Shown in pieces: positions 25,812 through 47,916 of a stretch of DNA of 64,000 nt. The notes beneath the pieces are model-generated. The model was not told where the DNA came from and did not search any database. It saw nothing but the letters and a program-made list of their open reading frames with translations. Source of the stretch: Planctomycetota bacterium (lineage in GTDB: Bacteria > Planctomycetota > UBA1135 > UBA2386). Location of the stretch: positions 7,040,001 through 7,104,000 of the forward strand of contig OZ245006.1 of NCBI GenBank assembly GCA_965223545.1, in the 5' to 3' direction. Made by a program: the position numbers and the translations under genes. Numbering within the stretch: the stretch's first letter is position 1; each line of letters starts with the position of its first letter.

Positions 25812-27381
25812 GGCGCAGCTACGTGCCTTGATCCCGGATCTGCTCACGCAGATCTCGTCGCTGAAGTCGCAGATGTCCGACCTTCAGCGCATGCTGTTCG
25901 GTCGCCGCTCGGAGAAGAGCCGCTACATCGACCCGCGACAGCTGCTGCCGTTCGCGCAAGAGGCTGTAGAGGAAGCGGGAGCCGACGCCAAGGCGGCCGA
26001 AGAAGAGGCCGAAGAGATCACCGTCCCCGAGCACAAGCGCAAGCGCACCAAGCGACGCAAGGACTTCCCAGAGCATCTTCCGCGGCAACGCTCCGTATTC
26101 ACGATCGAGGGCGAGGACCTGCTGTGCCCTTGCTGCGGCAACGGCCGTCGGGAGTTCGGCGAAGAGGTCTCGCAGGAGCTCGAGCGCATCGAGCTCTCGT
26201 TCGTCCACCAGATCGTGAGGAAGAAGTACTCCTGCGCGACCTGTCAGGGCTACGTCGTCGTCGCCGCGGGCCCCACCCGAGTCCTCGACAAAAGCATCCT
26301 CGGCCCCGGCTTCCTTGCGCAGATCATCTTCGACCGCTTTGCCAACCACATGCCGTACGCGCGGTTGGAGAAGAAGTACGCAGCCGAGGGGCTCAGCCTG
26401 TCGCGTAGCGTCCTATGCACTTCGGCGATGCGCTGTGCCGAGCTCCTGAAGCCCGTGTTCGATGCCCATGTCGAGCAAGTTCTCGAGAGCCTCGACACCT
26501 CCGTCCTGCAGGTGGACGACACCTACGGCAACCAGCGCAACGGCCGAAACCCCGGACAGAAAAAGATCCACGTGTGGGCGTGGCGCGATCAACACGCCGG
26601 GGTTTTCTACACCGCTACGGACTCACGCAATCGCGGCAGCCCCAAAGAGGTCTTGGGCGACCGCGGTGGTCGGTTGCAGTGCGATGGCCATGACTGCTAC
26701 AGCGATCTCGATCCAACCAGCATCGCGCGCATCGGATGCTGGGCACACCTTCGTCGCTACTTCGTGAATGCGCGGAAGCTCGGCGACTCGACCACGGAGA
26801 AGGCTCTGGGCTGGATCGGCAAGCTGTTCGCGATCGAGAGCGTCGCCAAGAAGGGCAAAGATGGTCGACCCTTCACGGATGACGAGCTGGTCGAGGTCCG
26901 TCAGCGCGACTCTCGCCCGATTGCGAACGCGCTCAAGGCTTGGCTCGAGCAGATGCACATCGACCAGCCGAGCCTCCCGAAGGGGCCGCTCATGGAGGGA
27001 GTTCGCTACGGGCTCAACCAGTGGCCTGCTCTCGAGCGCTTCCTGACCGATGGCCGCATCCGCGAGATCTCGAACAACGGTTGCGAGCGTGCTCTGCGTG
27101 CAGTCGTGATCGGCAAGAAGAACTGGCTCTTCTTCGGATCCGAGGACGGCACCCAAGCTTCACTCATCCTCTTGAGTCTCGTCCAGTCGTGTCGAGAGCA
27201 TGGCATCAGCCCGCTGCTCTACCTGCGGGATGTGCTTCACGCGATCTCGACCACTCCTGCCTCCCAGGTCGGTCAGCTGACTCCGCGTGGCTGGATGCTG
27301 GGACGGCAACGGCGTGCCCAGATCGCCAAAGCCGACAACGCGATCGACAACATCGTGCGTCAGTTGTTCGTGGGCTCGTAG
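25759..27381 (+). CDS. tnpC: IS66 DDE transposase TnpC
   Basis: LFGRRSEK, CPCC...CATC, LQVDDT, LQCDG, GCWAHLRRYF, ISNNGCERALR, KKNWLFFGS. Confidence 0.95.
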   Translation: MVAMGGRKQTVNVDALDEAQLRALIPDLLTQISSLKSQMSDLQRMLFGRRSEKSRYIDPRQLLPFAQEAVEEAGADAKAAEEEAEEITVPEHKRKRTKRRKDFPEHLPRQRSVFTIEGEDLLCPCCGNGRREFGEEVSQELERIELSFVHQIVRKKYSCATCQGYVVVAAGPTRVLDKSILGPGFLAQIIFDRFANHMPYARLEKKYAAEGLSLSRSVLCTSAMRCAELLKPVFDAHVEQVLESLDTSVLQVDDTYGNQRNGRNPGQKKIHVWAWRDQHAGVFYTATDSRNRGSPKEVLGDRGGRLQCDGHDCYSDLDPTSIARIGCWAHLRRYFVNARKLGDSTTEKALGWIGKLFAIESVAKKGKDGRPFTDDELVEVRQRDSRPIANALKAWLEQMHIDQPSLPKGPLMEGVRYGLNQWPALERFLTDGRIREISNNGCERALRAVVIGKKNWLFFGSEDGTQASLILLSLVQSCREHGISPLLYLRDVLHAISTTPASQVGQLTPRGWMLGRQRRAQIAKADNAIDNIVRQLFVGS

Positions 27382-32190: not shown

Positions 32191-33402
32191 TCAGAAACTG
32201 GCGTTGAAGTCGACGCGCAACCGCCACAACGCGGTGTCCCCTTGTGGCGCCTCGGCGTCGTGCTGCTGGCTGGCGAGTGCCCAGACGTGCAGGTTCGCGT
32301 TGTCGAGGATTCGATAGACCACTCCGGCGATGTGGCTGCGGTGGTTCGTGGCCAGCGGAAGGTCGTCCTGCGCGAACGGGGAGAACACGGCGTCGCGCTC
32401 GATGACCTGCCATTGGTAGTAGGCGCGCACGCCTCCGGGCTGGTTGGTCGACCCGAGGCCGATGCCGGCTGCCCAGCCGATGTCACCAACGCCGCGCGCG
32501 CGTGCGTTGTAGATGACCTCGGCACCGAGCTGCCACGGCAGGCCGTTGCCGTCCCCGGTGAGGCCGACCACCCCGTGCCACAGGCCGAAGTCGGACTGAA
32601 ACGCGTCTGGGGTGCCGTCGCCGTCGAGGTCGGCGGTTGCGTTGCCCGTGTTGTGGCGCAGCGCCGCGCGCGATGTCCCCGGCGTCGGGTTGCCGTAGTG
32701 GTAGTAGGCCGCGGCGGCTTCGGCGCGCACCGGCGCGGTCGCAGCCGTCGCGGCGGCGAGCTGCGCGAAGCCCATGGCCACGTCGGCGCCGGCGCCGCGT
32801 TCGGACAGCCGGTAGCCGCCGGCGACGAGCCGCACCCCTTCGTCGCCGGCGACCGGTAGGTGCAGCGCGCCGGCGATGCCCTCGGGCTGCACGTCGGCGT
32901 CCCAGACGAGCTCGCCGTAGATCGGGTTGCGGGCCGCGGGGTGTGCGAACTTGCCGGCCGCGATCCAGCTGTCCGCCCAGCCCGGCCGGTAGCGGACGAA
33001 CGCGCGGTCGAGGCTGATCTCGAATGACTCGAAGAGCTCGCCGAACGTCACGTGGGGTGAGTTGGGATCCTCGGGGTCACCGGTCGTCAGGCGGGCACCG
33101 AGGTCGAGCTGTTCGTGCAATGCACAGCCAATCTCGATACGCAGCCGCAGCCGCTCGCGAAAGCGATCGGGTTGGCCGTGTGCGCCCCAGTTGCTCTCGT
33201 GCCGCAGGCGGACGTCTCCTCCGATCGTCCAGTCCGGCCCGGCGGGCTGCGCGCCGCGCGCGTCTCGCTCGGCCAGGGCGCGTTCGACGGCGCGGGCCAG
33301 CTGCTCGTCGGTCCATGGCGGGTCCTGGCCCGCAAGCGGGCCGCTCAGGGCGCCGGCGACCGCGGTCGCACCGGCGAGGAGGCGGAGGATGCGGGGGCGC
33401 AT
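32191..33402 (-). CDS. Putative outer-membrane porin
   Basis: Signal peptide, GDVRLRHE, R.R.RLR, RLTTG, SLDRAF, LVWDADVQPEG, terminal RVDFNASF. Confidence 0.82.
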   Translation of the reverse strand: MRPRILRLLAGATAVAGALSGPLAGQDPPWTDEQLARAVERALAERDARGAQPAGPDWTIGGDVRLRHESNWGAHGQPDRFRERLRLRIEIGCALHEQLDLGARLTTGDPEDPNSPHVTFGELFESFEISLDRAFVRYRPGWADSWIAAGKFAHPAARNPIYGELVWDADVQPEGIAGALHLPVAGDEGVRLVAGGYRLSERGAGADVAMGFAQLAAATAATAPVRAEAAAAYYHYGNPTPGTSRAALRHNTGNATADLDGDGTPDAFQSDFGLWHGVVGLTGDGNGLPWQLGAEVIYNARARGVGDIGWAAGIGLGSTNQPGGVRAYYQWQVIERDAVFSPFAQDDLPLATNHRSHIAGVVYRILDNANLHVWALASQQHDAEAPQGDTALWRLRVDFNASF

Positions 33403-33475
33403 GGGTGGATTGTGGGCGGCCCCCGGCGACCGACAAGTGGTGCGATGCGATCGTCGCTAACGGTGCCGCGGCGCC

Positions 33476-33499
33476 GAACGTCCAACCCCCCGTGTCGTT
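33476..33499 (+). promoter_or_regulatory. Possible ECF-type promoter (autoregulatory?)
   Basis: GAAC-N16-CGTT upstream of the ECF sigma gene. Confidence 0.3.
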
Positions 33500-33557
33500 G
33501 GGCCGAAGTCTGGCGGTTGCGCCGCCGCGGCCGCCGGTGACGATGGGGCCGCCGGCG

Positions 33558-34172
33558 ATGGCCATCATGTCTTCCTCTCGCCGAACCGAGGGCGGCGCTG
33601 CCGGTGCCGGCGCGCGCCCCCCGCATTCCGACCCGGTGGAGGCGGACCGCGCCCTGCTGCAGGCCGCGGTGGCCGGCGATCGCGGCGCCTGGGCGGCGTT
33701 GTTCGAGCGCTATGCGGCGGTCGTGCACGGCATCGTGCTCTGCCACGCGGGGCCGGCGGAAGCCGAGGACACAACGCAGGACGTATTCGTCACCGCGTAT
33801 CGGCGGCGTGCATCGGTGCGCGACCCAAAGACGCTGCCGGCCTGGCTGTGCGCGATCGCGCGGCACCGCGCGATCGACAGCCGGCGGCGCCGCCGCCGCC
33901 GGCCCGCGCCGGTCTCCGCCGACGAGCTGGCGGCGGCGACGGCGTCGCCGCCGGCGCAGAGCGAAGCCCGGGAGCTCGCCGCGCGGGTGCTCGAGCTCGT
34001 CCGTGGCCTCCCTGAGGCCTACCGGGAAACGTTGGTGTTGCGGTTGGTCGAGGGCCTGGACGGACCGGCGATCGCGCGCTGCACCGGCCTGACGCCGGGG
34101 TCGGTGCGGGTCAACCTGTGCCGGGGAATGGCCTTGCTGCGTCCGCTGCTGCGGGCGGAGGGTTGGTCGTGA
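33558..34172 (+). CDS. ECF sigma-70 factor (start uncertain)
   Basis: AEDTTQDVF, AWL..IARHRAID..RR, LPEAYRETLVL, IA...G.TPGSVRVNL.RG. Confidence 0.92.
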   Translation: MAIMSSSRRTEGGAAGAGARPPHSDPVEADRALLQAAVAGDRGAWAALFERYAAVVHGIVLCHAGPAEAEDTTQDVFVTAYRRRASVRDPKTLPAWLCAIARHRAIDSRRRRRRRPAPVSADELAAATASPPAQSEARELAARVLELVRGLPEAYRETLVLRLVEGLDGPAIARCTGLTPGSVRVNLCRGMALLRPLLRAEGWS

Positions 34173-35146
34173 GCCGCGAGCGCGAACCGCGGCCGCCGGC
34201 CGATGACGGCTACCTGTGGCAGGGAAGCGAACCGGTCGATGCCGATGTCGAGACCTTCGAGCGGCTGCTCGCACCGCTGCGACACGCGGCCGGGGCGCGG
34301 CCGCCGGAGCTGGCTCGCGCGCGCGGGCCTGTCGGCGGCACCGGGGCCCGCTGGGCGCTGGCGGCGGTGCTGTGCATCTCGCTCGCCAGCGCGGCTGCGG
34401 GCTGGCTTTGGCTCACGAGTGGGCGCATCGCGGTGACAGTCGACGGCGAGCGGGTCGCGTGGCGGGTCGGTGAGCGGTGGGTGGCGGACGGTACCCGCAC
34501 CGTCGCGCTGGGCGGCGTCGGCCGCTTCGAGGTCGAGGCCGGGACGGAGCTGCGGCTCGAGCAGTGCGACCGCGCTCGCAGCAGCTTCTTCCTGGAGCGC
34601 GGAGCACTGACCGCATTCGTGTTCCCCTCGGTCGAGGCGCGCTACTTCCAGGTCGGCACGCCGGCCGTGCGCTGTGTCGATCTCGGCTGCCGCTACCGGC
34701 TCGAGGTCGACGACGAGGGTGCGGCCCGCGTGCACGTGACCCTCGGTGAGGTGGCCTTCGAGGAGGCGCGCCGCGCGGTGCGGGTTCCCCGCGGCAACGT
34801 CTGCCGGGCCTCGGTCGGCGACGGGGTGTGCACGCCGCGCGCCGCCGTCGATGCCGGGACGCGGTTCGCCGCGCTGGTCGACACCTACGACCGCGCCCTG
34901 GCGGCCGGTGGGGCGCGGGCGGGCGCGGCCGCGGCGCTGCTGTCGGCAGCGACCGAGGCCCGACACTCGCTGGTCGTCTGGCACCTGCTGCAGGATTCCG
35001 ATGCCGCGGTGCAAGCCGCGGGGTGGCGTTGGCTGGTCGCCCGCTACGGCATCGCGCCGGGCCAGCGACGCGAACCCCCGGCGTCAACGAGCCTTGCGCA
35101 GCGGGAGGCCTGGCGGCTGCGCATCCAGGGCGACTGGTATCTCTGA
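34169..35146 (+). CDS. Anti-sigma factor, FecR-like
   Basis: GTGA coupling to sigma; single TM; LERGAL, FQVGTP, DLGC.Y, VTLGEVAF. Confidence 0.75.
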   Translation: MSREREPRPPADDGYLWQGSEPVDADVETFERLLAPLRHAAGARPPELARARGPVGGTGARWALAAVLCISLASAAAGWLWLTSGRIAVTVDGERVAWRVGERWVADGTRTVALGGVGRFEVEAGTELRLEQCDRARSSFFLERGALTAFVFPSVEARYFQVGTPAVRCVDLGCRYRLEVDDEGAARVHVTLGEVAFEEARRAVRVPRGNVCRASVGDGVCTPRAAVDAGTRFAALVDTYDRALAAGGARAGAAAALLSAATEARHSLVVWHLLQDSDAAVQAAGWRWLVARYGIAPGQRREPPASTSLAQREAWRLRIQGDWYL

Positions 35147-35340: not shown

Positions 35341-36096
35341 ATGTTCCGTTCCCGCAAGTCCGCGCCGCAAGAGCCCGAAGAGGGCGACGAGATGCTGGTG
35401 CTCGTCGACAAGGCGGTGCACCCGTTCATGGTGCTGCTGCACGACCCCGCCGGGTTCCGCGCCGAGCAGGTGCGTGGGTTGCGCAACAAGCTGATCGCCA
35501 TGAACCCCGACGGTGCGCCGAAGACGCTGGTCGTCACCTCGGCGATTCGCGGCGAGGGCAAGAGCGTCACGGCGATCAATCTGGCGATGGCGTTCGCCGA
35601 GATGGAGCGCATGCCGGTGCTGCTCGTCGATGGGGACCTGCGGGCGCCGTCGGTCGAGCGCTACCTCAACCTCAACGAGCAGGCGGGGTTGTCCGACATC
35701 CTCATGGGGCGCGCCGGCCTCGAGCACGTCGTGCGCGAGTCGGTGTACCGCAACCTCGCGGTGATGGGCGCCGGCACCCGGCTCACCGGCCCGTCGGAGC
35801 TGTTGACGGCACCGCGTTTCGAGGAGCTGCTGCTGCGCCTCAAGGAGCGCTACCAGTACGTGATCGTCGACACGCCACCCGTGCTGCCGTCGACCGACGC
35901 CAGCGTCATGGCGGCGCGGGCGGACGGCTGCCTTTTGGTCGTGCGCTTGGAACGTTCGTCGAAGGCGCTGACGCGCGAGGCCATCAAGAACCTGACCGAC
36001 CTAGGCGCCAACATGCTCGGCACGTTCGTCACCGAAGTCCGCGGTGCCGATCCCGAGGCCGATCCGAGGCTCGGCGACAGTCAGGAGGAGTACTGA
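35341..36096 (+). CDS. CpsD/CapB-family (BY-kinase-like) P-loop ATPase without a Tyr cluster
   Basis: AEQVRGLR, VTSAIRGEGKS, LLVDGDLRAP, GLSDIL, PSELL, VIVDTPP; ends ...QEEY. Confidence 0.88.
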   Translation: MFRSRKSAPQEPEEGDEMLVLVDKAVHPFMVLLHDPAGFRAEQVRGLRNKLIAMNPDGAPKTLVVTSAIRGEGKSVTAINLAMAFAEMERMPVLLVDGDLRAPSVERYLNLNEQAGLSDILMGRAGLEHVVRESVYRNLAVMGAGTRLTGPSELLTAPRFEELLLRLKERYQYVIVDTPPVLPSTDASVMAARADGCLLVVRLERSSKALTREAIKNLTDLGANMLGTFVTEVRGADPEADPRLGDSQEEY

Positions 36097-36891
36097 GTGG
36101 CATCGCTCGGTCAGAGCCTGAAGGAGTCGCTGCGCAAGCTTGCGTACAGCACGTCGGTCGACCAGTTGCGCAAGAAGGGCGTCAAGAACGTCAAGGTGGT
36201 TGGTCTCGACCGCATCGTCGGGCTGATCGAGGAGGCCGTGCACCGGAGCCTGCGCAACAAGCTCATGGGGCTCGAGCGCGAGCGCATCGTCGGCGACACC
36301 TCGGAGGAGTTCCTGCGGCTGCTGAAGAGCAACGAGGAGCTCGAGCGCTTGCGCAGCGAAGCGATGCGCGAGAAGCACCGCGCGGAGGAGGAGATCGACG
36401 AGCTGCGCCGGCAGATCGAGCAGGGACACCGCGAGCTCAGCGAGCGCCTCGAAGAGGGTGAGCGCGAGATGCAGGCCCAGTACGAGGGCCAAAACGCGGT
36501 CATCGCCGAGAAGCTCAACGTGGTGTTTCGCGAGCTGGTGCAGACGCCGGGCGGCGATCTCTCCGGCCTGCGCGAGCGCATGTTCGAGGTCGTCCTCAAC
36601 CTGGTCGATGAAGAGCGTCGGGCCACGGCGCACGCGCAGCAGGCGGCCCGCGACGGCGAGATCGACCGTTTGCAGCGGCGCTTGAGCAAGCTCAAGAGCT
36701 CGCTCGAGGAATCCGAAGCGCGGCTGCTGGATGCCAGCAGTACACCGACCGTCGACGCCGGCATCTCCAGCGTCTATCGGACCGTGCAGGGCATCGACCA
36801 GGGCGACTCGCAGTTCGATCGCAAGCGGGAGCTGATGGCCGACATCTTTCGGGCAAACGTTGCCCTGCAGAAGGGCGATGCGGGATCGTGA
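36097..36891 (+). CDS. Soluble coiled-coil protein of unknown function
   Basis: GTG immediately after the upstream stop with AGGAGG RBS; long E/R/L heptads; no signal or TM. Confidence 0.82.
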   Translation: MASLGQSLKESLRKLAYSTSVDQLRKKGVKNVKVVGLDRIVGLIEEAVHRSLRNKLMGLERERIVGDTSEEFLRLLKSNEELERLRSEAMREKHRAEEEIDELRRQIEQGHRELSERLEEGEREMQAQYEGQNAVIAEKLNVVFRELVQTPGGDLSGLRERMFEVVLNLVDEERRATAHAQQAARDGEIDRLQRRLSKLKSSLEESEARLLDASSTPTVDAGISSVYRTVQGIDQGDSQFDRKRELMADIFRANVALQKGDAGS

Positions 36892-36989
36892 CGCGGAGCG
36901 TCTTTGGCCCGCGCATCGCGGCACGCGTGCCGCCGGCCCAGCGAACCAAACGACTGAACCACTACGCAACCGATTCGAGGAACTGAAGC

Positions 36990-38063
36990 ATGACCGAGGG
37001 TGAAGCCGCAGCGGCGGGTAAGGACGGAGCGAAGGATCACGGTGTCCTGTACATCGGCATGGACTTGGGGACGTCGCGGACGGCGATCTCTGCCAGCAAC
37101 GGCGTCCGCGAGTCGATGTTCTCCGCCGTGGGCTACCCCAAGGACGTGGTCAGCCAGAAGCTGCTGAAGAAGAGCGTGTTGTTCGGCAAGGAAGCGCTGG
37201 AGAAGCGGTTGTCGCTCAACCTCTACCAGCCGCTGCAGCACGGTGTCCTGAAGCACAGCGAGGGTGGCGGAGACGAGGCCGATGCCAATGTGCGCGCCGC
37301 GCGCGACCTGATCCGCGCCGCGACCGACATGGCGCAGGCGCGCAAGGACGAGCTGGTCTACTGCGTCATCGGCGCGCCGGCCCAGGCTTCCATCCGCAAC
37401 AAGGAGGCGATCATCGAAGCCGCGCGGGAGACCGTCGATTCGGTGATGCTGTGCAGCGAGCCGTTCGCCGTCGCGTACGGGCTCGACATGCTGGAGGATG
37501 TGCTCGTCGTCGACATCGGCGCGGGCACCACCGACTTGTGCCGGATGCACGGCACGATGCCGGAGGAGTCGGATCAGATCACGACGACTGCAGCGGGTGA
37601 TGCGGTGGATGCCGAGCTCGCCCGGCTGATCGGCGAAACCTGCCCGGGTGCGCAGTTCACCACCCAGATGATCAAGGACATCAAGGAGCGCTTCTCCTAC
37701 CTCGGCGATCCGCTCGGCCGCTGCACGGTGGACCTGCCGGTGAACGGCAAGCCGACCAGCTTCGACCTCACCGATCAGGTCAAGGCCGCGTGCTCGATCC
37801 TGATCCAGCCGATCGTCGATGGGATCAACAAGCTGATCTCGTCCTTCGATCCGGAGTTCCAGGAGCGGCTGCGCCGGCGCGTTCTGCTCGCCGGTGGCGG
37901 TTCGCTGATCAAGGGCTTGGACAACGCGATCGAAGAGGCGATGCAGCGCGACCTCGGCGGTGGCAAGGTGATGCGCATCGAAGAGCCCATCTACGGCGGC
38001 GCCAACGGTGCGCTGAAGATCGCGCACGACATGCCCGAGGAGTACTGGGAGAAGCTCAAGTAG
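36990..38063 (+). CDS. mamK: MamK-like bacterial actin
   Basis: IGMDLGTSRT, VGYPKDVV, PLQHGVL, VIGAPAQAS, SEPFAVAYGLD, VDIGAGTTD, DQ.T...AG..VD, LAGGGS, GALKIA..MP..YW; matches MamK as recalled rather than MreB. Confidence 0.85.
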   Translation: MTEGEAAAAGKDGAKDHGVLYIGMDLGTSRTAISASNGVRESMFSAVGYPKDVVSQKLLKKSVLFGKEALEKRLSLNLYQPLQHGVLKHSEGGGDEADANVRAARDLIRAATDMAQARKDELVYCVIGAPAQASIRNKEAIIEAARETVDSVMLCSEPFAVAYGLDMLEDVLVVDIGAGTTDLCRMHGTMPEESDQITTTAAGDAVDAELARLIGETCPGAQFTTQMIKDIKERFSYLGDPLGRCTVDLPVNGKPTSFDLTDQVKAACSILIQPIVDGINKLISSFDPEFQERLRRRVLLAGGGSLIKGLDNAIEEAMQRDLGGGKVMRIEEPIYGGANGALKIAHDMPEEYWEKLK

Positions 38064-38116: not shown

Positions 38117-38836
38117 CTATAGACCGAACTCGCCGCTCAGGATCTCGCGCAGCTCGTAGAAGTCGCGGATCACGTAGTTCGGCTCGGTCGCGCCCTGGTG
38201 CGAGGCGTAGCGCCCGGAGCGCTGGCTGCGCACCGTGATCAGACCCTCGGCGTTGGCGGGGTCGATGTCGTGCGTCGGGTTGTCGCCGACGTAGACGACT
38301 CTGGCCGGATCGAGCTCCAGGTCGGATACCACGCGCCGATACAGCTTGGGGTTGGGCTTGCTGATGCCGATCTGCTCGGTGAAGTAGATCGCGTTGGGGG
38401 TGAGGAAGTCGTAGATCTTCAGCCGGATCAGCTTCTCGGCCTGTTTGATGGTCCAGCCGGCGGAGACGATCCCGCGCAGCACGGGCTTGTCGGCCAGCCA
38501 GCTGAGGACCTCGTAGACGTCGTCGTAGACCTGCAGCTCGCGCCACTTGGTCTCGTGGTAGGCGACCACGCCGGCGGCGACGACCACCGCGGGGTTGACC
38601 CCCCGGCTGGCCTGCCCCGGCAGGCGCTGCACCACCTTGTCGAAGTGCGACGAGTGGTTGCTCGAGAACTCGGTGATGACCTCGGTCAGCTCCTTGAGGC
38701 ACGCCTCACGGCTGGCCTTGAGGCCGGCACGAATCATCGCGTCGACGGCGGCGCGGCGCGCCTTGTCCGCGAACACCGTCGTCGAAAACAGCGTGTCGTC
38801 GATGTCGAAGAAGACCGCTTGGATCTTGCGCGCCAT
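38117..38836 (-). CDS. HAD-superfamily hydrolase
   Basis: FFDIDDTL, SKPNP, YVGDNPTHDI. Confidence 0.92.
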   Translation of the reverse strand: MARKIQAVFFDIDDTLFSTTVFADKARRAAVDAMIRAGLKASREACLKELTEVITEFSSNHSSHFDKVVQRLPGQASRGVNPAVVVAAGVVAYHETKWRELQVYDDVYEVLSWLADKPVLRGIVSAGWTIKQAEKLIRLKIYDFLTPNAIYFTEQIGISKPNPKLYRRVVSDLELDPARVVYVGDNPTHDIDPANAEGLITVRSQRSGRYASHQGATEPNYVIRDFYELREILSGEFGL

Positions 38837-38859
38837 CGACGACTCGGGGGGGCTGCCGG

Positions 38860-41364
38860 TCAGCGCGACAGCTGGTCGGCGACCTCGGTCAGCTCGGTGA
38901 TGGTCGCGGTGACCAGCACGGACAGCGAGGTGTTCTCGTCCGAGACGCCCTCTTGCTTGAACAGGAAGGAGATCAGCGGAATCTTGCTGAGCAGCGGCAC
39001 CTCGGCGCGGCGCTCACGGCTGAGCACCTCGCGCAGGCCGCCGATCAGCACCGAGCCACCGTCCGGCACCGACGCGCTGGTGGCGAACGAGCGCACCGTC
39101 ATCGTCGGCAGCTGCAGGATGACCGGCAGGGTGGTGCCCGCCAGCGACGTGGTGAACGTCGGGATCGGGCGGGTGAGCTCGGCCACCGTGGGCTGCAGGC
39201 TCAACATGATGTTCTTGCGGTCGTGCGCGATGGTCGGGCGCACGTCGAGCACGATGCCGTCTTGGATCACGTCGACCTTGGGGTCGGCGATGAACGACGC
39301 CTGCGCCACCTCGACGTCGAAGTCGCGGATGTAGGAGGTCTGGTTGATCACCGCCATGTTCGCGCGCTCGTTGTTGAGCACGGTCAGCATCTGGCTGTTG
39401 ACCACCTGGATGTCCTCTTGCTTCTCGATCGCCTGGATCAGCGCCTGCAGCTCGAGGTCGTCGAGCAGCGAGAACGCCGCGGTGAAGCCGCCGTTGGCGG
39501 TCAGCGCTTGACCCAGGGGGGCACCGAAGAAGTTCTCGGTGCGCGCCCGCACGTCGCCGTCGCCACCGTCGTTGAAGAACGCACCGGCGCTCGGGTTGCT
39601 GGCGGCGTCGCCCGAGCCCTGGTTGTCGAGCCCGCGCGACGCGGAGTCGTCCAACGCGTTGGTCACGTCGTCCAGAGTGGCCTCGGTGCCCTTGTTGCCC
39701 GAGCCGCCGAGCCCGCGGAAGTCCACGCCGATCTCCTGCAGGTAGTTCTGCGTGATCGTCAGGAACTTGGTCTCGATGGTCACCACGCTGGTGGCGAACC
39801 GACGTTGGTCCTCGATGAAGCGCCGCACGCGCTCCTGCATCTCGGGCGAGGCGTGGCAGAGCAGGTAGCCGCTCTCCACGTAGTCCATCCGGCCGCCGCC
39901 GTCGGCTTCCCAGTAGGTGTCGCCGCCGGTCGCGCTCTCGATGTTGGTCTTCAGCACGTCGGCTTCGATGTAGGCGACCTTCTCGTCACCCTCGCTGCCG
40001 ATGCGCGGGCCCGACAGGCCGATGTCGCCACTGGGGATGTCACGGATGATCGGCGGCAAGAACGTGGTGCGGGGGAACACCAAGTCGCGCACGTCGTGGC
40101 TGATCATGATGTCGGCGCCACCGGACTTGGCCTTGGTGGTGATCTCGACCACGCCGTTGCGGACCGTCCAGGCCAGGGTCTCGCTCTTGTCGACCATCAG
40201 GTCGAGGAAGTTGGCCAGCGAGATCGGCGCGGCGATGTCGATCTCCATCACCAGACCTTCGCCGTCGACCGCGTCGCGCGCTTCCTGCGACATCATGATC
40301 GGCACGTTGGTCATGCTGCGCAGCAGCCGGATGACGTCGCCGTAGTCACCGGTCTCCTCGGTGAACTGTACCTTCGGCACCTGCTTGGAGCGCACCAGCT
40401 CGCGCACCGCGCGGTCGTCCGGGTCGGTGGCGTCGGCCGGCACCACTCCCTGGTCGCGCATGCTGGCGCGCTTCCAGGTCGCGCGGTCGACGCGCAGAAT
40501 GTCGGATTGGGGCACCCGCAGATCCTGGTCCTGTTCGAGCATCCGCTTGAACTGCTCGCGCTTGGAGCGGCGGTAGCGCTCGGTGCTCTCGGTGCGCTGC
40601 GCCTTGGTGGCGGTGTCGTGGATCTCGCGCGCGAGGTGGTTGGTCTGGTCGAGAGTCATGGCGTCGAACGCGAGGTCGCGCGCCAGCTCGTAGTGACCGC
40701 CGTCGAACGCGCGCACCGCCTTGTCGAGCAGGTTGTCCACCCGCGCGGTGAGCCGCGCAGCGCGGGCCTCTTCGGCCAGTCGCTGCTCGCGGTAGATCTC
40801 GTCCTCGATCGCCGCCTGCTTCTCGGCGGCGTGCCGGTCGTGCAGCTCCTGCGCGCGCGCCCGCATCTCGTTGGCGCGGTCGCCGATGTCTTGCCAGTCG
40901 ATGTCTGGGGCGACGTCGATGCGCAGCAGCACCGCGTCGAGGTCGGCGATCGCGGCTTCGTAGTCCTCGTTGGTGATGGAGCGCTCCGCGGCTTCCATGC
41001 GCTGCAGGGCGTCCTGGCGCGCGCGCTGCTCGCGGATCTGCCACAGCCGCTGCATCTGCTCGGCGAAGCTCTGCCCGGTTCCCGGGTGGCCGGGTTGCAA
41101 CGCGGACTGCACCTCGGCGAGCGCGCTCAACACGTCCTGATTGGCGGGCGACAGCTCCTTCGCGCGCAGCAGCAGGGACAGCGCCTCCTCGTTGCGTCCG
41201 GAGCTGCGCAGCTCGCGGGCGTCTTGGAGGTAGCGTTCGGTGAGGAACTTGGCGCGCTCGGCCTTGAGGCTCTGCCCCTGAGGAGCCGCGGTGAGCGCGG
41301 CGGTGGAGATCAGGAGCAGGGAGAGGGCCGATGCGAGGACGCGGCGCGTCAGGACTTCGAACAT
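38860..41364 (-). CDS. Secretin-family protein with N-terminal TPR-like helices (secretin B)
   Basis: Signal peptide; HDVRDL N-domain motif; VTIETKFL, LTVLNNERA, GIVLDVRPTI, VPDGGSVLIGGL, VPLLSKIPLISFLF. Confidence 0.88.
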   Translation of the reverse strand: MFEVLTRRVLASALSLLLISTAALTAAPQGQSLKAERAKFLTERYLQDARELRSSGRNEEALSLLLRAKELSPANQDVLSALAEVQSALQPGHPGTGQSFAEQMQRLWQIREQRARQDALQRMEAAERSITNEDYEAAIADLDAVLLRIDVAPDIDWQDIGDRANEMRARAQELHDRHAAEKQAAIEDEIYREQRLAEEARAARLTARVDNLLDKAVRAFDGGHYELARDLAFDAMTLDQTNHLAREIHDTATKAQRTESTERYRRSKREQFKRMLEQDQDLRVPQSDILRVDRATWKRASMRDQGVVPADATDPDDRAVRELVRSKQVPKVQFTEETGDYGDVIRLLRSMTNVPIMMSQEARDAVDGEGLVMEIDIAAPISLANFLDLMVDKSETLAWTVRNGVVEITTKAKSGGADIMISHDVRDLVFPRTTFLPPIIRDIPSGDIGLSGPRIGSEGDEKVAYIEADVLKTNIESATGGDTYWEADGGGRMDYVESGYLLCHASPEMQERVRRFIEDQRRFATSVVTIETKFLTITQNYLQEIGVDFRGLGGSGNKGTEATLDDVTNALDDSASRGLDNQGSGDAASNPSAGAFFNDGGDGDVRARTENFFGAPLGQALTANGGFTAAFSLLDDLELQALIQAIEKQEDIQVVNSQMLTVLNNERANMAVINQTSYIRDFDVEVAQASFIADPKVDVIQDGIVLDVRPTIAHDRKNIMLSLQPTVAELTRPIPTFTTSLAGTTLPVILQLPTMTVRSFATSASVPDGGSVLIGGLREVLSRERRAEVPLLSKIPLISFLFKQEGVSDENTSLSVLVTATITELTEVADQLSR

Positions 41365-41742
41365 CTGGCTTCGGAGCTTGCTGTAGGGAATCGAGAGGGC
41401 ACCCCGCGGCCGGTACGTCACGCGGACGATCGGCCGCTGCGAGAGGGTGTCGCCGACAACTCGGGGGGACGGTCTCCGGCGATCCGGGAGGCGCAGAAAC
41501 TAGCTGTCATGGGGGGGATCCGCCACCACAATCTTCTTCGCTTTGGCGCCCCTCCACGCTGTGCGGCTGGCCGCGGAACGCGGGTTCCGCGAAGGACTTC
41601 GTGCGGTTCCCCGTAGCCGATCGGGCCGGTTCGGGGCGCGCACACGGCGGTCCGCACGGGCCGCCGGCGGAGGGGGGGCGAACCCCTGGCGCCGAGTCGA
41701 CAACGACTCGGCTGGCCGACGCGCCGGCGGCCGGCTCGTTGG

Positions 41743-42318
41743 CTACTCGCCGCTGCGGGCGCCTCGGGCGCCGCGGGCGCCGAGGCCGCCGCCGAAGCTG
41801 ATGTCTTCGAAGCCCGCCTCGCGGACCGCGTCCAGCGTGGTGGCGACGTCGCCGTAGGTCGTGTCCGGGCCGGGCTCGATGACCACGCTCATCGGCTTGA
41901 GCTCGCCGGTTTCCTTGTCTCGCTGGAAGCGGCTCGTGTCGGTGGCGATCTTGCGCAGCGCCTCGAGCAGCGCGTCCGAGCTCTGGAACGGCGTCGGTCC
42001 GATCTTCCACCGGACCTGGTGGCCCTCGAGCCGGTACGACGGTTCGATCCCGGCCTCCGCCTCCTGCGCGGTCGCCTGACGGCGCGGGATCTTGGTGCCG
42101 AAGTTGTCGCAGATGATCATGATGTTGAGCTTTTCCTGCGGCTCGACCTCGGTCGTGTGCGCGCCCACATCCTTCGGCAGGTAGGCCGGTAGCTTGGCTT
42201 CCAAGATGCGGAAGTCGATGCAGAGGAAGAAGATGATGAGCAGGAACACGACGTCGATCATCGGCGTCATGTCCATCTTGGCCTCTTCCTCGATGGTTTC
42301 TCGCAGTCGTTCCTTCAT
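41743..42318 (-). CDS. ExbD/TolR-family protein
   Basis: MDMTPMIDVVFLLIIFF; VVIEP...TYGDVATTLDAV..AG. Confidence 0.9.
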   Translation of the reverse strand: MKERLRETIEEEAKMDMTPMIDVVFLLIIFFLCIDFRILEAKLPAYLPKDVGAHTTEVEPQEKLNIMIICDNFGTKIPRRQATAQEAEAGIEPSYRLEGHQVRWKIGPTPFQSSDALLEALRKIATDTSRFQRDKETGELKPMSVVIEPGPDTTYGDVATTLDAVREAGFEDISFGGGLGARGARGARSGE

Positions 42319-42329
42319 CGCATCGCCCT

Positions 42330-42875
42330 CTACTGAGCCTGCCTGGCCAACATGCGCACTTCCTTGTCCTCTTCGCTGAGCGCGAGCTCCAGCTTCCAGA
42401 ACGCGGCCTCGGGGAAAGTGCAGGCCTCCATGAACTTGCCGACGTAGTGCCACTCGGTCCACTTGTCGGCGCGCACCAGGACGGGATCCTCGATCGTGGT
42501 CATCCGCATGCCGCCGCCGACGACTTCGCTCTTGATGCTGTCGGGGTCGGCGACGGTCTGCTTCCACAACAGGAGGAGCGGACGGATGTTCTCGATGATC
42601 TTCTTGGGATCGTGTCCGTCGACCAATGGGTCGTAGTAGGCGTTCTTCTTGTAGATCATCTCACCGGACTGGGTGATGTTGATCACCGGCCGGTTCTCCG
42701 GCGGCTTCTCGTCCGGCACCGCGAACTCCGCCTTCGGCAGGATCAGGTCCTCGAGCTCTTGCTGGCTCAAGTCGATCACGAGCACGAAGAAGATCATCAG
42801 CAGGAAGACGCAGTCGATCATCGGCGTCATGTCCATCTGAATCTCTTGCTGGGCGCGTTTGGTTTGTTTCGACAT
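42330..42875 (-). CDS. ExbD/TolR-family protein
   Basis: MDMTPMIDCVFLLMIFF, LILPKA, VLVRADK. Confidence 0.9.
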   Translation of the reverse strand: MSKQTKRAQQEIQMDMTPMIDCVFLLMIFFVLVIDLSQQELEDLILPKAEFAVPDEKPPENRPVINITQSGEMIYKKNAYYDPLVDGHDPKKIIENIRPLLLLWKQTVADPDSIKSEVVGGGMRMTTIEDPVLVRADKWTEWHYVGKFMEACTFPEAAFWKLELALSEEDKEVRMLARQAQ

Positions 42876-42943
42876 CGGTTGCTCCCGGTCTGCGGTCGGC
42901 TTGCCGCACTCCAACGAGCGCGGCGGGGGGCCGGATCAGTCGG

Positions 42944-43666
42944 TCACTCGCCCGCGCTCTTCGGACGGAAGCGCTCGAACATGTCCTCGGCGAGGGCGTT
43001 GACCTCGATGGTCGCGCGCACCACGCGGTTGCGGAACACGAAGAAGAACGCGCCGACCGGGATCGCCACGACCAGGCCGAAGATGGTGGTCGTCAGCGCC
43101 AGCTTGATGCCGCCCGCCAGCTGCGCCGGGCTGACCGAGCCGCCGGCCGCCGCGATCTCGCCGAACGTGACGAACATGCCCGTCACCGTGCCGAGCAGGC
43201 CCATCATCGGCGCCGTGGCACTGATCAGGGACAGCCAGCCGATCTTCTGGAACAGCTTGACCGACTCCTCGTCCTCCATCTCGCGGACCGCGGTCTGGAT
43301 GGTTTCGAACGGGTGCCCGAGCTTGGACAGCCCCGCGGCGACCACGTTGGTGAGGTAGGTGCGCTCGTTCTCGCAGAGCTCCAGGGCGTCCTGGAAGTTC
43401 TCTTCGTCGAACAGGGCCTCGAGCTCGTCGACCAGGTCGGGCGGCGCGAGCTTGTCGCGCTTGATCGTCATGAAGTTCTCGATGATCAGCGCCAGCGAGA
43501 TCACCGAGATGATGACGATCACCCAGCCGACGATGCCCGCGTTCTCGAACATGTCGGCGAGCGCGCTCTTCTGCTCGGTGGCTTCTTGCGCGAGCAACGA
43601 GCTGGTCAGCAGCAGAGTGGACAGGGCCGGGAGGCAGGGGAAGCGGTTCAGAAAAGTCAGCTTCAT
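42944..43666 (-). CDS. MotA/TolQ/ExbB proton-channel protein
   Basis: APMMGLLGTVTGM..TF, LAGGI..AL.TT..GLVVAIP. Confidence 0.93.
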   Translation of the reverse strand: MKLTFLNRFPCLPALSTLLLTSSLLAQEATEQKSALADMFENAGIVGWVIVIISVISLALIIENFMTIKRDKLAPPDLVDELEALFDEENFQDALELCENERTYLTNVVAAGLSKLGHPFETIQTAVREMEDEESVKLFQKIGWLSLISATAPMMGLLGTVTGMFVTFGEIAAAGGSVSPAQLAGGIKLALTTTIFGLVVAIPVGAFFFVFRNRVVRATIEVNALAEDMFERFRPKSAGE

Positions 43667-43864
43667 CGATCTAAGCCGTCGGCGCGACGGCGCGAGAGTG
43701 GAGGGACCGAGGGCTGGTCCACGAGAGTGCGAATGCCGCCGCGGCGGAGGCAAAGGCCACGGCAGCGCCAGAGTGTGCGTGAGGGGGGGCGGAGACGAAA
43801 GCCCCTGCCGCGCCCACAGGCGAGAAAATCGTCCGGGGTTGCCCGGTCGTGACCACCGGTCGCG

Positions 43865-45019
43865 TCACCGCTGGGTCTCGCCGCGGGCCTGCTCGGCCCA
43901 ATCGGTGGTGGGGTATTGATCCGTGACCAGGTCGAAATAGGTCAGCGCGCGGTTGCGCGCGTCGCGCTCGCGCTCCTCGCCGAGGGCGAGCAGCACCTTG
44001 CCGAAGAAGTACAGCGACTTGGCCGAAGTCTCGGCGTTGCTGGTGTCGCGCGCCATCGCGCGCGCCAACGCCATCTGCGCCTCGCGCAGGGTGGCGGCCT
44101 CGCCACTGCCTTCGGTCGACAGAAACAGGGCCTGCCCCACCCCGGCCAGGGCGGCGGCCTGCACGCTGCGGGTACCGCTGTCCGCGTGCCGGCGGAAGTA
44201 CTGCAGCGCCTGCTGCCAATCCTTCTCGACGATGTAGGTCTCGCCCTGCGCGATCAGCGCGCGTTCCTTGAGCTCGCCCAGCTCCGCATCGGCGCCCTCG
44301 GTGCTGATGGCGCCGTCGACGGCGGTCGCGACCGACTGGAACGCGCTGCGCGCCTGGCCGGCTTCGCCGGCGGCGGCGAGGGCGACGCCGCGGTGGTACT
44401 TGGCGTGCGCGGCCCAGGTCATGCCCCAGCCGTCGGTGACGGTGCGCGACTCCAAGCTCTGCAGCGCGGAGGCGGCTTCGGTCGGCTGACCCTGCAGCAG
44501 CAGCGCGCGGGCGAGCAGCAGGTTGGCCTCGGCGACGCGCAGCCCGTCGGGGTGGTCGTTGATGTACTCCTGCAGGCGGTCGGCCGCCGCCTCGGCGGTG
44601 GCCGCGTCGGTGTCGGCCGCGCGCAGCGCGGCGCGCGCTCCGCGGAAGGTCGCCTCCGCCTTGGTCAGGTCGCGCAGCGCCTCCTTGGCGGCCTCGAGGT
44701 ATTGCGTCGCAGCCTCGCCGAACTGCCCGTTCTCGGCCAGGTTCTCGGCCAGCCGGAACGTCTCGGGCATACTGTGCCACTCGATGGCGCGCACCGTGGC
44801 CGACGGGACCTTCTTGTCGCCGTCCGGCGAGGTGTAGGTCACCTCGGCGGCGGTTGCGGCGGTCACCTCACCGCCGCGCAGGGTGGCGCCGTCGCGCAGG
44901 TGCACGACGTCGGTCTGCGCGTGGGAGGTCGCGGCGCCGGTGAGCGCGACGGCGGTCACCGCCAGTGCGCGCCACGCGGAGAGGGCGGCCGGCAGGATGG
45001 TGGTCGTGGGAGCGCTCAT
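43865..45019 (-). CDS. Exported TPR protein
   Basis: Signal peptide (SHAQ), DVVHLRDG beta N-domain, TPR helices, YPTTDWA terminus. Confidence 0.8.
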   Translation of the reverse strand: MSAPTTTILPAALSAWRALAVTAVALTGAATSHAQTDVVHLRDGATLRGGEVTAATAAEVTYTSPDGDKKVPSATVRAIEWHSMPETFRLAENLAENGQFGEAATQYLEAAKEALRDLTKAEATFRGARAALRAADTDAATAEAAADRLQEYINDHPDGLRVAEANLLLARALLLQGQPTEAASALQSLESRTVTDGWGMTWAAHAKYHRGVALAAAGEAGQARSAFQSVATAVDGAISTEGADAELGELKERALIAQGETYIVEKDWQQALQYFRRHADSGTRSVQAAALAGVGQALFLSTEGSGEAATLREAQMALARAMARDTSNAETSAKSLYFFGKVLLALGEERERDARNRALTYFDLVTDQYPTTDWAEQARGETQR

Positions 45020-47916
45020 CGCGGGTCGTTCTCCAGGAACATGTCTCTCAGGTTGCGGCCCTCGAGGCCGAACTTCTCCAGCTGGGCGAACTCGTCGAAC
45101 GAGCGCGCCTTGTTGAACAGCGTCACGGCGTACTGCTGGTACTTGCTGTCCTTCTTCGCCGCCTCGCGCGCGAAGTGCAGCAGCTCGAAGTGGAACCGGT
45201 ACCAGTCGAGCGAGTGGTCTTCGAACGCCTTGGTCGAGTCCAGGGCGTAGGTCTTGTACTCGCCCCAGTACTTCTCGTAGGCCTCCACCGGCTTCTCGAG
45301 GCCCAAGAAGGACACGATGCGGCCGGTGCGCTCATCGACCTCTTGCCAGCCGCCGAGAGCCAGCGCGACCAGGCGCTTGAGCGGGTAGTCGTTGGGCCGG
45401 GCCGCCTCGGCCGCGGTCAGCATCTCGTGGGCCTCGCGGTACTTGTGCTGGCGCAGGACGGCGTCGCCGATCACCGGCCGGATCTGCCGGTCGAGGTTGG
45501 TGGCGAGCTCGGCGTCCTCGCCGAAGCGCTCCAGCGTGTCGTTGCCGAGCTTCTCGACCAGCGGCCAGTCGCGCAGATCCTGGGCGTGCTTGATGGTGTG
45601 GTAGGCGATCGTGTACTGCGGGTCGCCGGAGTCCCGCAAGTACGCCTGGCCGATGGCCACCGTCTTGCGCCGCAGGGTGTCGAGGGCCTCGCGGGCCGCC
45701 TCGGCGTCCTCGCCACGGGTCTCGATGGCGGCGACCTCGGTCTCCTGGGCGCCGACCTTGTCGTGGTAGGCGCCGAAGATCGCGCTGGCCAGAATCGGCA
45801 CCGTGGTGTCGCGCGGCGCCAGCTCGATCAGCTGGCGCTGCTTCTCTTCGGCCTTGTCGAGGTTGCCGAGTGCGATGTAGCAACGCCCCTGGTAGTAGAT
45901 CGCGCGCGGCACCATCGCCGGCACCGCCTCGCCGTGGGACGCCTCGAACTCACCCAGAGCGCGGATCGCCTCGGGGATCTTGGTGGCGTCGGCCTCGCGG
46001 TTGTCGCCGCCGGTGCCCTCCTCGTAGAGCATCGCTCCCTCGGCGAAGGCGATCTCGCCCTCGGCGATGCGCCGCACCTGCTCCGCCGCGTTGTCGTCGT
46101 CGGGCAGATTGGCGTCCTTGGTCTGGCGATAGGCGCGGTAGTCCGCGATCGCCTTGCGCGCCGCGTCGAAGTCCCCCATCCGGTGGTGGCACATCGCGAT
46201 GCGCGCCTGCGCCCACTCGTAGTAGAGCTCGCCCTTGGGGATCGAGCGCAGCTGGCGCAGCGCCCCCTCGTAGTTGCGCTTGCCGAACTCGCGCAGCGCT
46301 TCGTTCCAGATCCGCTTGGTGGCGTCCTCGGCCGAGCCGAAGCGGACGACCAGTCCGTTGACGTCGTCACCCAGGCTGTTGAAGAACGCGTCGTTCTTGG
46401 CGTTGCTGCGCACCTGGTTGAGGGTCTTCTGGATCATGTCCGCGGCGCGGCTGACGTGGTTCTTGTCCTCGCCGTCGCCAAAGCGCTCGAGTCCTTCCTT
46501 GAGCGCCATGGTGGCCTCCAGCACGCGGCCCTGCAGGGCCATGCTATGGCCGATGACGAAGTGCGCCTCCATGCCGTGCTCGGCGAGCTCGGCGTCGGTC
46601 ATCATCGACAGCGCGTGGTGGATGCCGGTGATCGCGCGCTCGTAGTTCTTGGCGATGTAGTCGCCCTTGGCGACCTCGAGCAGCAGGCCGCCGCTGACGC
46701 GCTGCGACTGCGCTTCGAGAATGTCCTTCAACGCCGATTTGGCGCGCAGGCCGACGAAGTCATTGCCGTGCCAATCGTTGATCGCCTGCACGATGGTCAA
46801 CGCGCGGTTGAGCTCTTCGTCGCTGCCGCCGTCGGCGAGCGCCTGGGCGTAGGCGAGGTACATGCCGTGACCGAAGCGCTCGTCCTCTTTGCCCTCGTCC
46901 TCGACCGGCTGCTCGAGATTGGTGAGCGGGACGCCGTAGCCGCCGAGGCGGTTGCGGTAGTCGTCGACCAGCGTCATCACCTCGGCGCGCTTGCCCTGCT
47001 GGAGCAGCACCAGCGCAGCGCGCTCGTAGGCTTCTTCCATGGTGACGACCATGAGCTCGCGGACGTCCGAGGACAGCTGCAGGGACTCGTCGGTGAGCAC
47101 GGTGTCGGCGGACTGGATCACGCCCTGGTAATTGGCGACGGCGTCGTCGAGCTCGCCGACCACCTCGTCGTTCTGCGCGTATTCGAACAGGGCGCGCTGG
47201 CCGAGGGCGGTCTCTTCACCGACCTCGAAGATCAGCTCCTCCAGCTCCGAGCGCGAGCGCTCGGCGAGATAGCTGCGGTCCTTGGCCACCGCGCGGGCGT
47301 GCTCGCGCAGCAGGATGCCCTTGCGCATCCACGCCAGGTGGTAGTCGGTCCACAGCCGCGGGTTGTCGTCCTTGCGCGACTCGAGCGCCTGCTTCACCGC
47401 GTCGCACGCGTCCTCACCGGCGCGGAAAACGGCGGCGGCATCTTCCTCGAGCTCCGGCACCTTCGCCGGCTCGTCGGCGCGGGCCAGCTCGAGCTCCTCG
47501 GCGAGAAACCGGCCGAACTCGAGCGACGCGTTGGCGAGCGTCATGCGCGCCGCATCGGCGGCTTGGCCGTCCGAGTAGCGGCTCAGGAAGTCGCGGACCT
47601 TGTCGAGCGCCTCTTTGTAGAGCGTGCGGCGCTCGGCCCGGTTGCCCTCCAGCTGGGCGCCGATCAGCGAGATCTCGATGCCGAGCTGCGCGACGCTCTG
47701 GAAGTCCTCGCCGTCCTTGTAGCGCAGCTTCAGCCGGTCGACCTCCGACTGCGCCAACGAGATGAAGCGCAGCTTGGTCGCCAGATCGCGGACGAACGTC
47801 AGATCGCGTTCGAGGCGGCTCTGTTGGGCGACGAGGGGCACCGAAACGGTGCCCGCCGCGAGGATTGCGAGGGCCGCGGGGTACGCGCTGCGCCGGAGGA
47901 AAAAGCGTGCCGTCAT
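45016..47916 (-). CDS. Large exported TPR/alpha-solenoid protein
   Basis: Signal peptide from MTARFFLRR, all-helical repeats; ATGA coupling to the next gene. Confidence 0.8.
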   Translation of the reverse strand: MTARFFLRRSAYPAALAILAAGTVSVPLVAQQSRLERDLTFVRDLATKLRFISLAQSEVDRLKLRYKDGEDFQSVAQLGIEISLIGAQLEGNRAERRTLYKEALDKVRDFLSRYSDGQAADAARMTLANASLEFGRFLAEELELARADEPAKVPELEEDAAAVFRAGEDACDAVKQALESRKDDNPRLWTDYHLAWMRKGILLREHARAVAKDRSYLAERSRSELEELIFEVGEETALGQRALFEYAQNDEVVGELDDAVANYQGVIQSADTVLTDESLQLSSDVRELMVVTMEEAYERAALVLLQQGKRAEVMTLVDDYRNRLGGYGVPLTNLEQPVEDEGKEDERFGHGMYLAYAQALADGGSDEELNRALTIVQAINDWHGNDFVGLRAKSALKDILEAQSQRVSGGLLLEVAKGDYIAKNYERAITGIHHALSMMTDAELAEHGMEAHFVIGHSMALQGRVLEATMALKEGLERFGDGEDKNHVSRAADMIQKTLNQVRSNAKNDAFFNSLGDDVNGLVVRFGSAEDATKRIWNEALREFGKRNYEGALRQLRSIPKGELYYEWAQARIAMCHHRMGDFDAARKAIADYRAYRQTKDANLPDDDNAAEQVRRIAEGEIAFAEGAMLYEEGTGGDNREADATKIPEAIRALGEFEASHGEAVPAMVPRAIYYQGRCYIALGNLDKAEEKQRQLIELAPRDTTVPILASAIFGAYHDKVGAQETEVAAIETRGEDAEAAREALDTLRRKTVAIGQAYLRDSGDPQYTIAYHTIKHAQDLRDWPLVEKLGNDTLERFGEDAELATNLDRQIRPVIGDAVLRQHKYREAHEMLTAAEAARPNDYPLKRLVALALGGWQEVDERTGRIVSFLGLEKPVEAYEKYWGEYKTYALDSTKAFEDHSLDWYRFHFELLHFAREAAKKDSKYQQYAVTLFNKARSFDEFAQLEKFGLEGRNLRDMFLENDPR

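Follow-up and report, generated by a model that had tools for sequence, protein, structure and literature searches.

What does an actin of the MamK family do in a bacterium in whose genome no magnetosome cluster was found? The question is raised by a stretch of 64,000 nt (the window) from Planctomycetota bacterium GCA_965223545.1 (contig OZ245006.1, positions 7,040,001-7,104,000, forward strand), whose genome spans 8.1 Mb in two contigs and is 91% complete. In this window a first-pass annotation had recognised three genes in a row, encoding an ATPase resembling the bacterial tyrosine kinases (BY-kinases), a coiled-coil protein and a MamK-like actin, and had proposed that together they make up a three-part cytoskeletal module that positions a cargo. 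The answer that we favour, and regard as probable, is that the locus encodes a unit of an actin cytoskeleton distinct from that of magnetosomes, anchored by the coiled-coil protein as an adaptor and receiving its input from the kinase or, in related lineages, from a GGDEF domain. The features concerned are the following.

35341-36096, + strand: gene for the BY-kinase-like P-loop ATPase, 251 aa (from family profile scans and motifs)
36097-36891, + strand: gene for the coiled-coil adaptor, 264 aa, abutting the ATPase gene
36118-36336, + strand: N-terminal domain of the adaptor (head; approximately residues 8-80), common to the adaptor upstream of a volactin-family actin
36634-36876, + strand: C-terminal domain of the adaptor (tail; approximately residues 180-260), specific to MamK-like loci
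36990-38063, + strand: gene for the MamK-family actin (saltatorellin type), 357 aa (from family profile and motifs)

The positions and the junction described at first are borne out by the open reading frames (ORFs): the three genes are co-oriented, the TGA stop of the ATPase gene directly abuts the GTG start of the adaptor gene, with AGGAG just upstream of the GTG, and the gap between adaptor and actin genes is 98 bp, with GAGGA preceding the actin ATG. No sigma-70 promoter or terminator consensus was found between 35000 and 38300 of the window. All three genes lie together in 21 of the 21 family loci fetched and in five of eight order-level loci (both sets drawn from the 30 best loci of an actin search in 40 relatives); since the triad is kept in every one of the former, the operon is not a product of chance. 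Among 80 loci from named genomes, the C-terminal domain of the adaptor precedes the actin in 79, whereas an adjacent kinase gene is present in 54 (of which 53 are co-oriented and one divergent), absent from 21 that have room for it, and beyond view in five short contigs. The gene order of the proposed three-part module is thus conserved, but the triad is not obligate: judged by gene content, the conserved core appears to be adaptor plus actin, and the kinase a variable input.

The actin carries the MamK-type motifs that had been read from it (VGYPKDV, SEPFAVAYGLD and GALKIAHDMPEEYW) and passes the MamK profile NF040964 by a narrow margin (407 bits, cut-off 400). It falls below the cut-offs of the BeeR profile NF053558 (204 bits against 530) and of the MreB profile (62 bits against 293). 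The closest solved structures in a PDB search are 5ljw, 5jyg and 5ljv (262-263 bits), followed by 8r2n (134 bits), with MreB at 48 bits or less; the PDB titles of the first four give only 'actin-like ATPase' or 'actin family protein', and we take the first three to be MamK and 8r2n to be BeeR. The ATPase motifs are intact (phosphate-1, connect-1 with E157, phosphate-2 and adenosine), and D25, E157, D175 and G302-G304 are invariant across 57 aligned actin rows. That the protein is not an MreB follows from a tree in which the MamK-like rows separate from MreB at 100% local support, and from the presence of MreB as a separate gene elsewhere in the genome (TIGR00904, 442.8 bits, cut-off 365.75). 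FtsZ was not found in the host genome, by a search whose control was recovered in 13 of 14 genomes. Named homologues are almost all from Planctomycetota; a MamK-like actin occurs in 35 of 40 relatives, one of which has it divided between two contigs, and, at E 1e-30, in 151 of 401 Planctomycetota genomes, with 98 of these exceeding the cut-off. At one locus (L164:5063-8642) a MamK-like gene is followed by one for a protein of 764 aa that combines a hydrophobic stretch at its N-terminus with a long acidic Thr/Pro linker and a MamK-like domain in degenerate form; no mam genes were seen around this tandem pair.

A cultured counterpart has been described. Three shape-changing strains of the OM190/UBA1135 group, which have no FtsZ, are reported to encode MreB and a MamK-like 'saltatorellin' (bioRxiv 10.1101/817700); according to the same source, the saltatorellin of strain Poly30 makes filaments in E. 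coli and in M. gryphiswaldense, and a role in shape change is proposed for it. The window actin is probably a saltatorellin, orthology being likely from a comparison with the Poly30 protein at its primer-encoded ends only. It ends in YWEKLK, and many of the relatives fetched end in YWEQLK, as the saltatorellin reverse primer encodes (10.1101/817700); no Saltatorellus-named record was among the matches listed in homologue searches. The first-pass annotation is to be corrected in that the actin type already has a name and a filament assay (10.1101/817700); its cellular role is only inferred.

The adaptor matches no Pfam or NCBIfam family, and structure prediction models it as all-helical. Its family is large, with 789 clusters at 50% identity reaching E 1e-10. 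Searches for a fold of the adaptor gave no Foldseek match at E 0.001 and no Pfam or PDB profile match, the best entry in the ESM Atlas standing at 0.85 with low recognition; for the head, the best fold match had a Z of 6.4, within the common range, and no Pfam or PDB match was consistent. This absence of matches does not show a new fold. The first-pass view of the coiled-coil protein as a partner of the actin gains support from a complex prediction in which actin residues 14-357 and adaptor residues 160-264 were both supplied as alignments: the predicted pair scores 0.80, the best control 0.01. The mark applied to this score is reached by 116 of 157 solved complexes and two of 215 mismatched pairs, counts that apply only approximately to the alignments used here. 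Agreement between runs amounts to at least 53% of contacts, and the predicted local distance difference test (pLDDT) value is at least 61 for the partner. On the adaptor the predicted contacts fall in residues 221-259 (including M247, I250, F251 and N254), and on the actin in residues 17-21, 35-39, 116-124, 135-142, 153-155, 163-168, 188-190 and 344-356. Across 106 adaptors N254 is invariant, and F251, K243, L257 and Y227 nearly so; among 57 actins, the contact residues Y163, D347, M348, P349 and W353 are invariant. The prediction thus supports, although it does not show, binding of the tail to the actin. When mapped from the fold, the actin surface would correspond to the groove between subdomains IA and IIA, and a partner placed there would be expected to cap, nucleate or end-track filaments. 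There are precedents in ParR on ParM and arcadin-2 on crenactin, where the partner occupies the hydrophobic groove of the actin (PMC5173319). At three loci (L083, L089 and L109) a second gene with the same type of tail lies some 6-7 kb downstream of the actin, in addition to the short adaptor upstream.

The head of the adaptor leads to a second actin. It has one paralogue in the host genome, the head profile matching two of 80,202 six-frame ORFs with the next at E 0.5, and the gene immediately downstream of this paralogue (358 aa; L190:8052-9128; G000:C1:1460054-1461127) has a product that passes the Pfam Volactin family PF25216 (283.8 bits, gathering threshold 35; the control was recovered in H. 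volcanii). Here the volactin-type actin and a coiled-coil protein of approximately 547 aa, with the shared head, an Ala/Pro-rich linker and a conserved tail of its own, occupy L190:8052-10987 (G000:C1, about 1460050-1462990, - strand). Volactin-type genes were found in 33 of 40 relatives and in 133 of the 401 phylum genomes, and the gene upstream of them has the head in all 23 order-level loci fetched (of the 33) and in 15 of the 20 top loci of the phylum. The two kinds of tail do not cross over: type 1 gave 112 matches, all at MamK-like loci, and type 2 gave 40, all at volactin loci. The head itself occurs in 171 of the 401 genomes, all of them among the 201 that carry a MamK-like actin, a volactin or both, and in none of the 200 that carry neither. 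The best reading of these distributions is that a shared head with actin-specific tails defines a modular adaptor family that would anchor two actin systems. The adaptor family, the predicted interface, the swappable inputs and the link to a second actin are new, in that they were not found in literature searches. Two second MamK-like paralogues (L245 and L246; 47-49% identity) have an upstream gene with the head and no match to the type-1 tail. In another genome (G353) the two actins lie 22 kb apart, and no mam genes were seen in that region.

A quite different use of the head can be envisaged, in which it binds DNA while the tail binds the actin groove, so that the filament moves chromosomal loci much as in ParMRC. 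The succession of head, stalk and actin-binding helix does resemble ParR, which binds the hydrophobic groove of ParM (PMC5173319); the haloarchaeal actin salactin aids DNA partitioning (PMC10869688), and the head of the window adaptor is basic. However, no DNA-binding Pfam family is consistent over 64 head sequences (the best, DUF760, is found in four), no relative of the actin was matched on plasmids or phages, and the head is modelled as helical without a ribbon strand, for which reason a ribbon-helix-helix head, also considered, is not supported. We regard DNA segregation as unlikely.

As to the cellular job of the filaments, we consider the chances to be about evenly divided between shape change or envelope remodelling, in cells that have no FtsZ and a separate MreB, and internal cargo positioning or division. 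Shape change is favoured because of the biology of the saltatorellin hosts (10.1101/817700) and because volactin, which forms tip-anchored filaments, acts in a shape transition (PMC10869688). If instead the adaptor tethered a membrane invagination, a granule or a large protein complex to a MamK-like track, the filament, the adaptor and the shared head would all play the same parts as in the adaptor-anchored cytoskeleton that we favour, and there is a model for it: MamK aligns magnetosomes, and in deep-branching magnetotactic bacteria Mad coiled-coil proteins act with MamK and Mad28 (PMC12748827). Yet, family-level synteny aside, the operon has no conserved cargo genes at its flanks, and the literature roles of saltatorellin and volactin just cited lie in shape, a role that fits the published work at least as well. 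Cargo positioning as the whole explanation thus seems improbable to us.

The input to the adaptor is where lineages differ. In 12 of the 80 loci, all without an adjacent kinase (ten have room to see one), the tail of the adaptor is fused to a degenerate GGDEF domain; all twelve keep RxxD and all twelve have lost GG[DE]EF. Retention of the first motif with loss of the second is the pattern of cyclic di-GMP (c-di-GMP) receptors. Pfam confirmed the domain in five of eight proteins scanned, one of these outside the twelve fusions. Volactin was found in none of 19 genomes from the two families of this order that show the fusions.

At the window locus the input would be the kinase, and its description as BY-kinase-like is upheld: it passes TIGR01007 (133.8 bits, cut-off 108.05), and Walker A (GK 73-74), A' (DxDxR 97-101) and B (DTPP 177-180) are all present as defined for BY-kinases (PMC4007543). 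The protein is a soluble catalytic domain of 251 aa, with neither a fused nor a neighbouring transmembrane activator; that an activator can be soluble is known from SalA, which acts on PtkA (PMC5035731). There is no C-terminal Tyr cluster. Among 59 kinase rows (including one doubtful long ORF and two from the same locus), the last 30 residues hold one Tyr in 45, two in four, at least three in five and none in five. The deviant Walker A motif of MinD and ParA, with its signature lysine, is KGGxGK. The P-loop here is SAIRGEGKS, from which that lysine is missing, and the MinD and ParA models lie far below their cut-offs; the ATPase is therefore of BY-kinase type and not of MinD/ParA type. Since the head is present at all 54 kinase loci, it is the foremost candidate for a contact with the kinase.

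Could the kinase simply belong to polysaccharide export, its adjacency to the actin being inherited synteny without functional meaning? Its best-matching families are indeed exopolysaccharide kinases, and 21 of the 75 loci in which it could have been seen lack it. Against this, no polysaccharide genes lie alongside, stop and start codons abut, and the adjacency survives inversion in several families. Moreover, a 97/97 branch separates the actin-linked kinases, co-oriented and divergent alike, from the genome's six other kinase-like rows in the tree, three of them on very long branches; the actin-linked kinases so stand apart from the fused Wzc-like kinases of this genome. This explanation is very unlikely.

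There remains the connection to magnetosomes that the name MamK implies. The first-pass annotation had recognised no mreC, mreD or other mam genes in the window, and among 63 window ORFs (a chosen part) scanned against Pfam there was indeed no match to MreC, MreD or Mam-type families. In the host genome the best scores are 119 bits for MamB, 95 for MamM, 77 for MamQ, 68 for MamA and 29 for MamP; MamI had no match, its control likewise being recovered nowhere. MamB exceeds its cut-off in none of the 401 phylum genomes. A contig of another planctomycete (L163; G411:C145) has consecutive genes of mamE-, B-, A-, Q- and M-like type, which in our reading is a true fragment of a mam cluster, and it too fails the NCBIfam cut-offs (MamB 240, MamM 246, MamA 136 and MamQ 107 bits). 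Since these cut-offs are evidently too strict for deep-branching clusters, the host was also searched with the L163 proteins, this being the only way in which MamE was assessed in the 91% complete genome; the best matches to the MamB-, A-, Q- and M-like proteins show 21-30% identity and lie dispersed along the 8.07 Mb contig. The placement of the actin outside any magnetosome cluster is thus corroborated, no cluster having been found with either the mam families or the L163 proteins, and the actin is not encoded together with mamABEIMPQ in the genome as assembled. A further planctomycete contig (L162; G053:C8) carries mamE/M/B-like genes and feoB, also under the NCBIfam cut-offs. The genomes holding L163 and L162 gave no MamK or volactin match, and no volactin match was found in four candidate genomes. 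The relatives of a candidate magnetotactic genome yielded only MreB and three more planctomycete MamK-like genes, only planctomycete-type names were among the matches listed in homologue searches, and no match came from scanning metagenomes with the MamB-like protein of L163. It is true that the actin passes the MamK model, that magnetotactic Planctomycetota exist (PMC7602337), and that cut-offs alone are not decisive when L163 falls under them; but with such low and scattered mam matches, and an actin as widespread among the relatives and the phylum as described above, the idea that it works for a magnetosome island, or is left over from one, is largely refuted and most improbable.

A looser relationship to magnetotactic bacteria may nevertheless exist. 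In deep-branching members MamK, Mad28 and coiled-coil Mad proteins act together, and MamK and Mad28 cross-interact (PMC12748827, PMC12713370, PMC10653835). Mad28 is marked by changed motifs, SxGxG in phosphate-2 and xExx in connect-1 (PMC10653835), and the second actin of the window genome carries both changes, in a comparison confined to these motifs. If Mad28 is volactin-type, these planctomycetes would hold a non-magnetic counterpart of the MamK-Mad28 system; none of the papers listed in a literature search contains both volactin and Mad28.

Family membership, gene order, the shared head, the actin-specific tails and the alternative inputs can be read from the sequences, and would fit together as follows. 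With its intact motifs and the filament assay of saltatorellin as a guide, the actin is expected to form ATP-dependent filaments. The protein encoded upstream would be its dedicated adaptor, a coiled-coil stalk bearing a C-terminal domain; the last helix of that domain is predicted to bind to the face of the actin formed by the N-terminal strand, the connect-1 region and the C-terminal helix. Through the shared head, the two filament systems would most likely be fastened to one another or to a common site in the cell. The BY-kinase-like ATPase, by co-occurrence, would act on the adaptor as a lineage-variable regulatory input, which in sister lineages may be replaced by the c-di-GMP-type sensor fused to the adaptor. 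Several observations weigh against this picture. Thirty of the 201 actin-positive genomes show no head domain, and in a volactin subfamily at a greater distance the head is absent from all 80 metagenome loci, eight of which have a weak type-2 tail. Of the 30 top-scoring MamK-like loci of the phylum, 18 have a type-1 tail match within 1.5 kb and 12 do not, some of the latter being cut by contig ends; the genetic link between tail and actin appears to loosen further from the window lineage. The window kinase has one terminal Tyr, with only five of the 59 rows having three or more, and the one conserved Tyr of the adaptor, Y227 (96 of 106), stands in a motif also found in kinase-less lineages. 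Binding of the tail to the actin is predicted by a model, with moderate confidence for the partner, and the prediction could reflect complexes of the groove-binding kind that have been solved. Finally, relatedness among the genomes makes the counts interdependent, and it was from these same lineages that the profiles were derived.

Since 2019 saltatorellin has stood as an orphan, and the known regulators of bacterial actins are few. The adaptor would supply it with a specific binding partner, with a predicted interface and either of two signal inputs, and would connect it to another family of actins, which up to now has been studied in haloarchaea. A MamK-type gene is present in about 38% of the sampled Planctomycetota genomes, and a volactin-type gene in about 33%; at the former frequency, a mamK match does not by itself mark a member of this phylum as magnetotactic. 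The shared head of the two adaptors points to a widespread two-actin cytoskeleton, testable in cultured relatives. Two questions thereby become testable: how the cells of planctomycetes that change shape and have no FtsZ are organised, and what the magnetosome skeleton arose from. On the latter we offer, as a tentative and rather doubtful proposal, that an old cytoskeleton of a MamK-type and a volactin/Mad28-type actin, served by one modular adaptor family with swappable input, drives shape change or FtsZ-free division, and that the chain of MamK, Mad28 and coiled-coil proteins of deep-branching magnetotactic bacteria was recruited from it.

The surroundings of the operon can be described briefly. 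The neighbours of the ATPase gene are FecR-like, ECF (extracytoplasmic function) sigma, adaptor and HAD hydrolase genes. Upstream (32191-35146) lie a putative porin, the ECF sigma factor and the FecR-like anti-sigma factor, an adjacency that is not kept in related loci. On the minus strand, converging on the actin gene (38117-50901), are two secretins, TPR proteins, ExbB, two ExbD and the HAD hydrolase. The last was considered as a phosphatase of the module, being adjacent in 38 of 80 loci; this is disfavoured because, like the secretin genes, it is encoded on the opposite strand, and because none of the order-level loci showed it. Elsewhere in the window, a full FtsK gene (14676-17372) is followed by a second, FtsK-like gene (17503-19293) with 4TM and gamma domains and no motor-domain match, and IS110 and IS66 transposase genes stand side by side (24121-27381).

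Among the nearest known systems is the saltatorellin of Saltatorellus ferox Poly30 and its relatives, likewise a MamK-like actin in deep-branching, FtsZ-less planctomycetes with MreB. The saltatorellin paper counts two actin homologues per strain and the window genome has three; its main text has none of the words 'operon', 'kinase', 'coiled' or 'upstream', and hence names no partners, while its supplements (Fig. S6, Table S4) may list neighbours or additional homologues (10.1101/817700). BeeR of Verrucomicrobiota is likewise a MamK-related actin, of unknown function, in non-magnetotactic hosts (PMC11929497); by the NF053558 scores given above, the window actin is not a member. The second actin shares its family profile with volactin (VolA) of Haloferax volcanii and differs from it in being bacterial and paired with a coiled-coil adaptor that has the head of the MamK adaptor; the main text of the volactin paper contains neither 'Planctomycet' nor 'MamK' (PMC10869688). 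The ATPase has the same Walker A, A' and B motifs as CapB, CpsD, PtkA and the catalytic domain of Wzc, with PDB matches to BceF and CapAB at E 1e-31 to 1e-28; unlike these BY-kinases, its family has no Tyr cluster and no membrane activator gene or polysaccharide locus alongside. ParM-ParR and crenactin-arcadin-2 have a groove-binding partner, as is predicted for the last helix of the adaptor (PMC5173319), whereas the system described here is chromosomal, has a long coiled-coil adaptor and gives no sequence or fold match to them. The window genome differs from the MamK systems of magnetotactic bacteria, in which MamK works with MamJ (Magnetospirillum) or with Mad28 and coiled-coil Mad proteins, in having no magnetosome genes; what it shares with them is the MamK profile, together with an adaptor encoded upstream of the actin.

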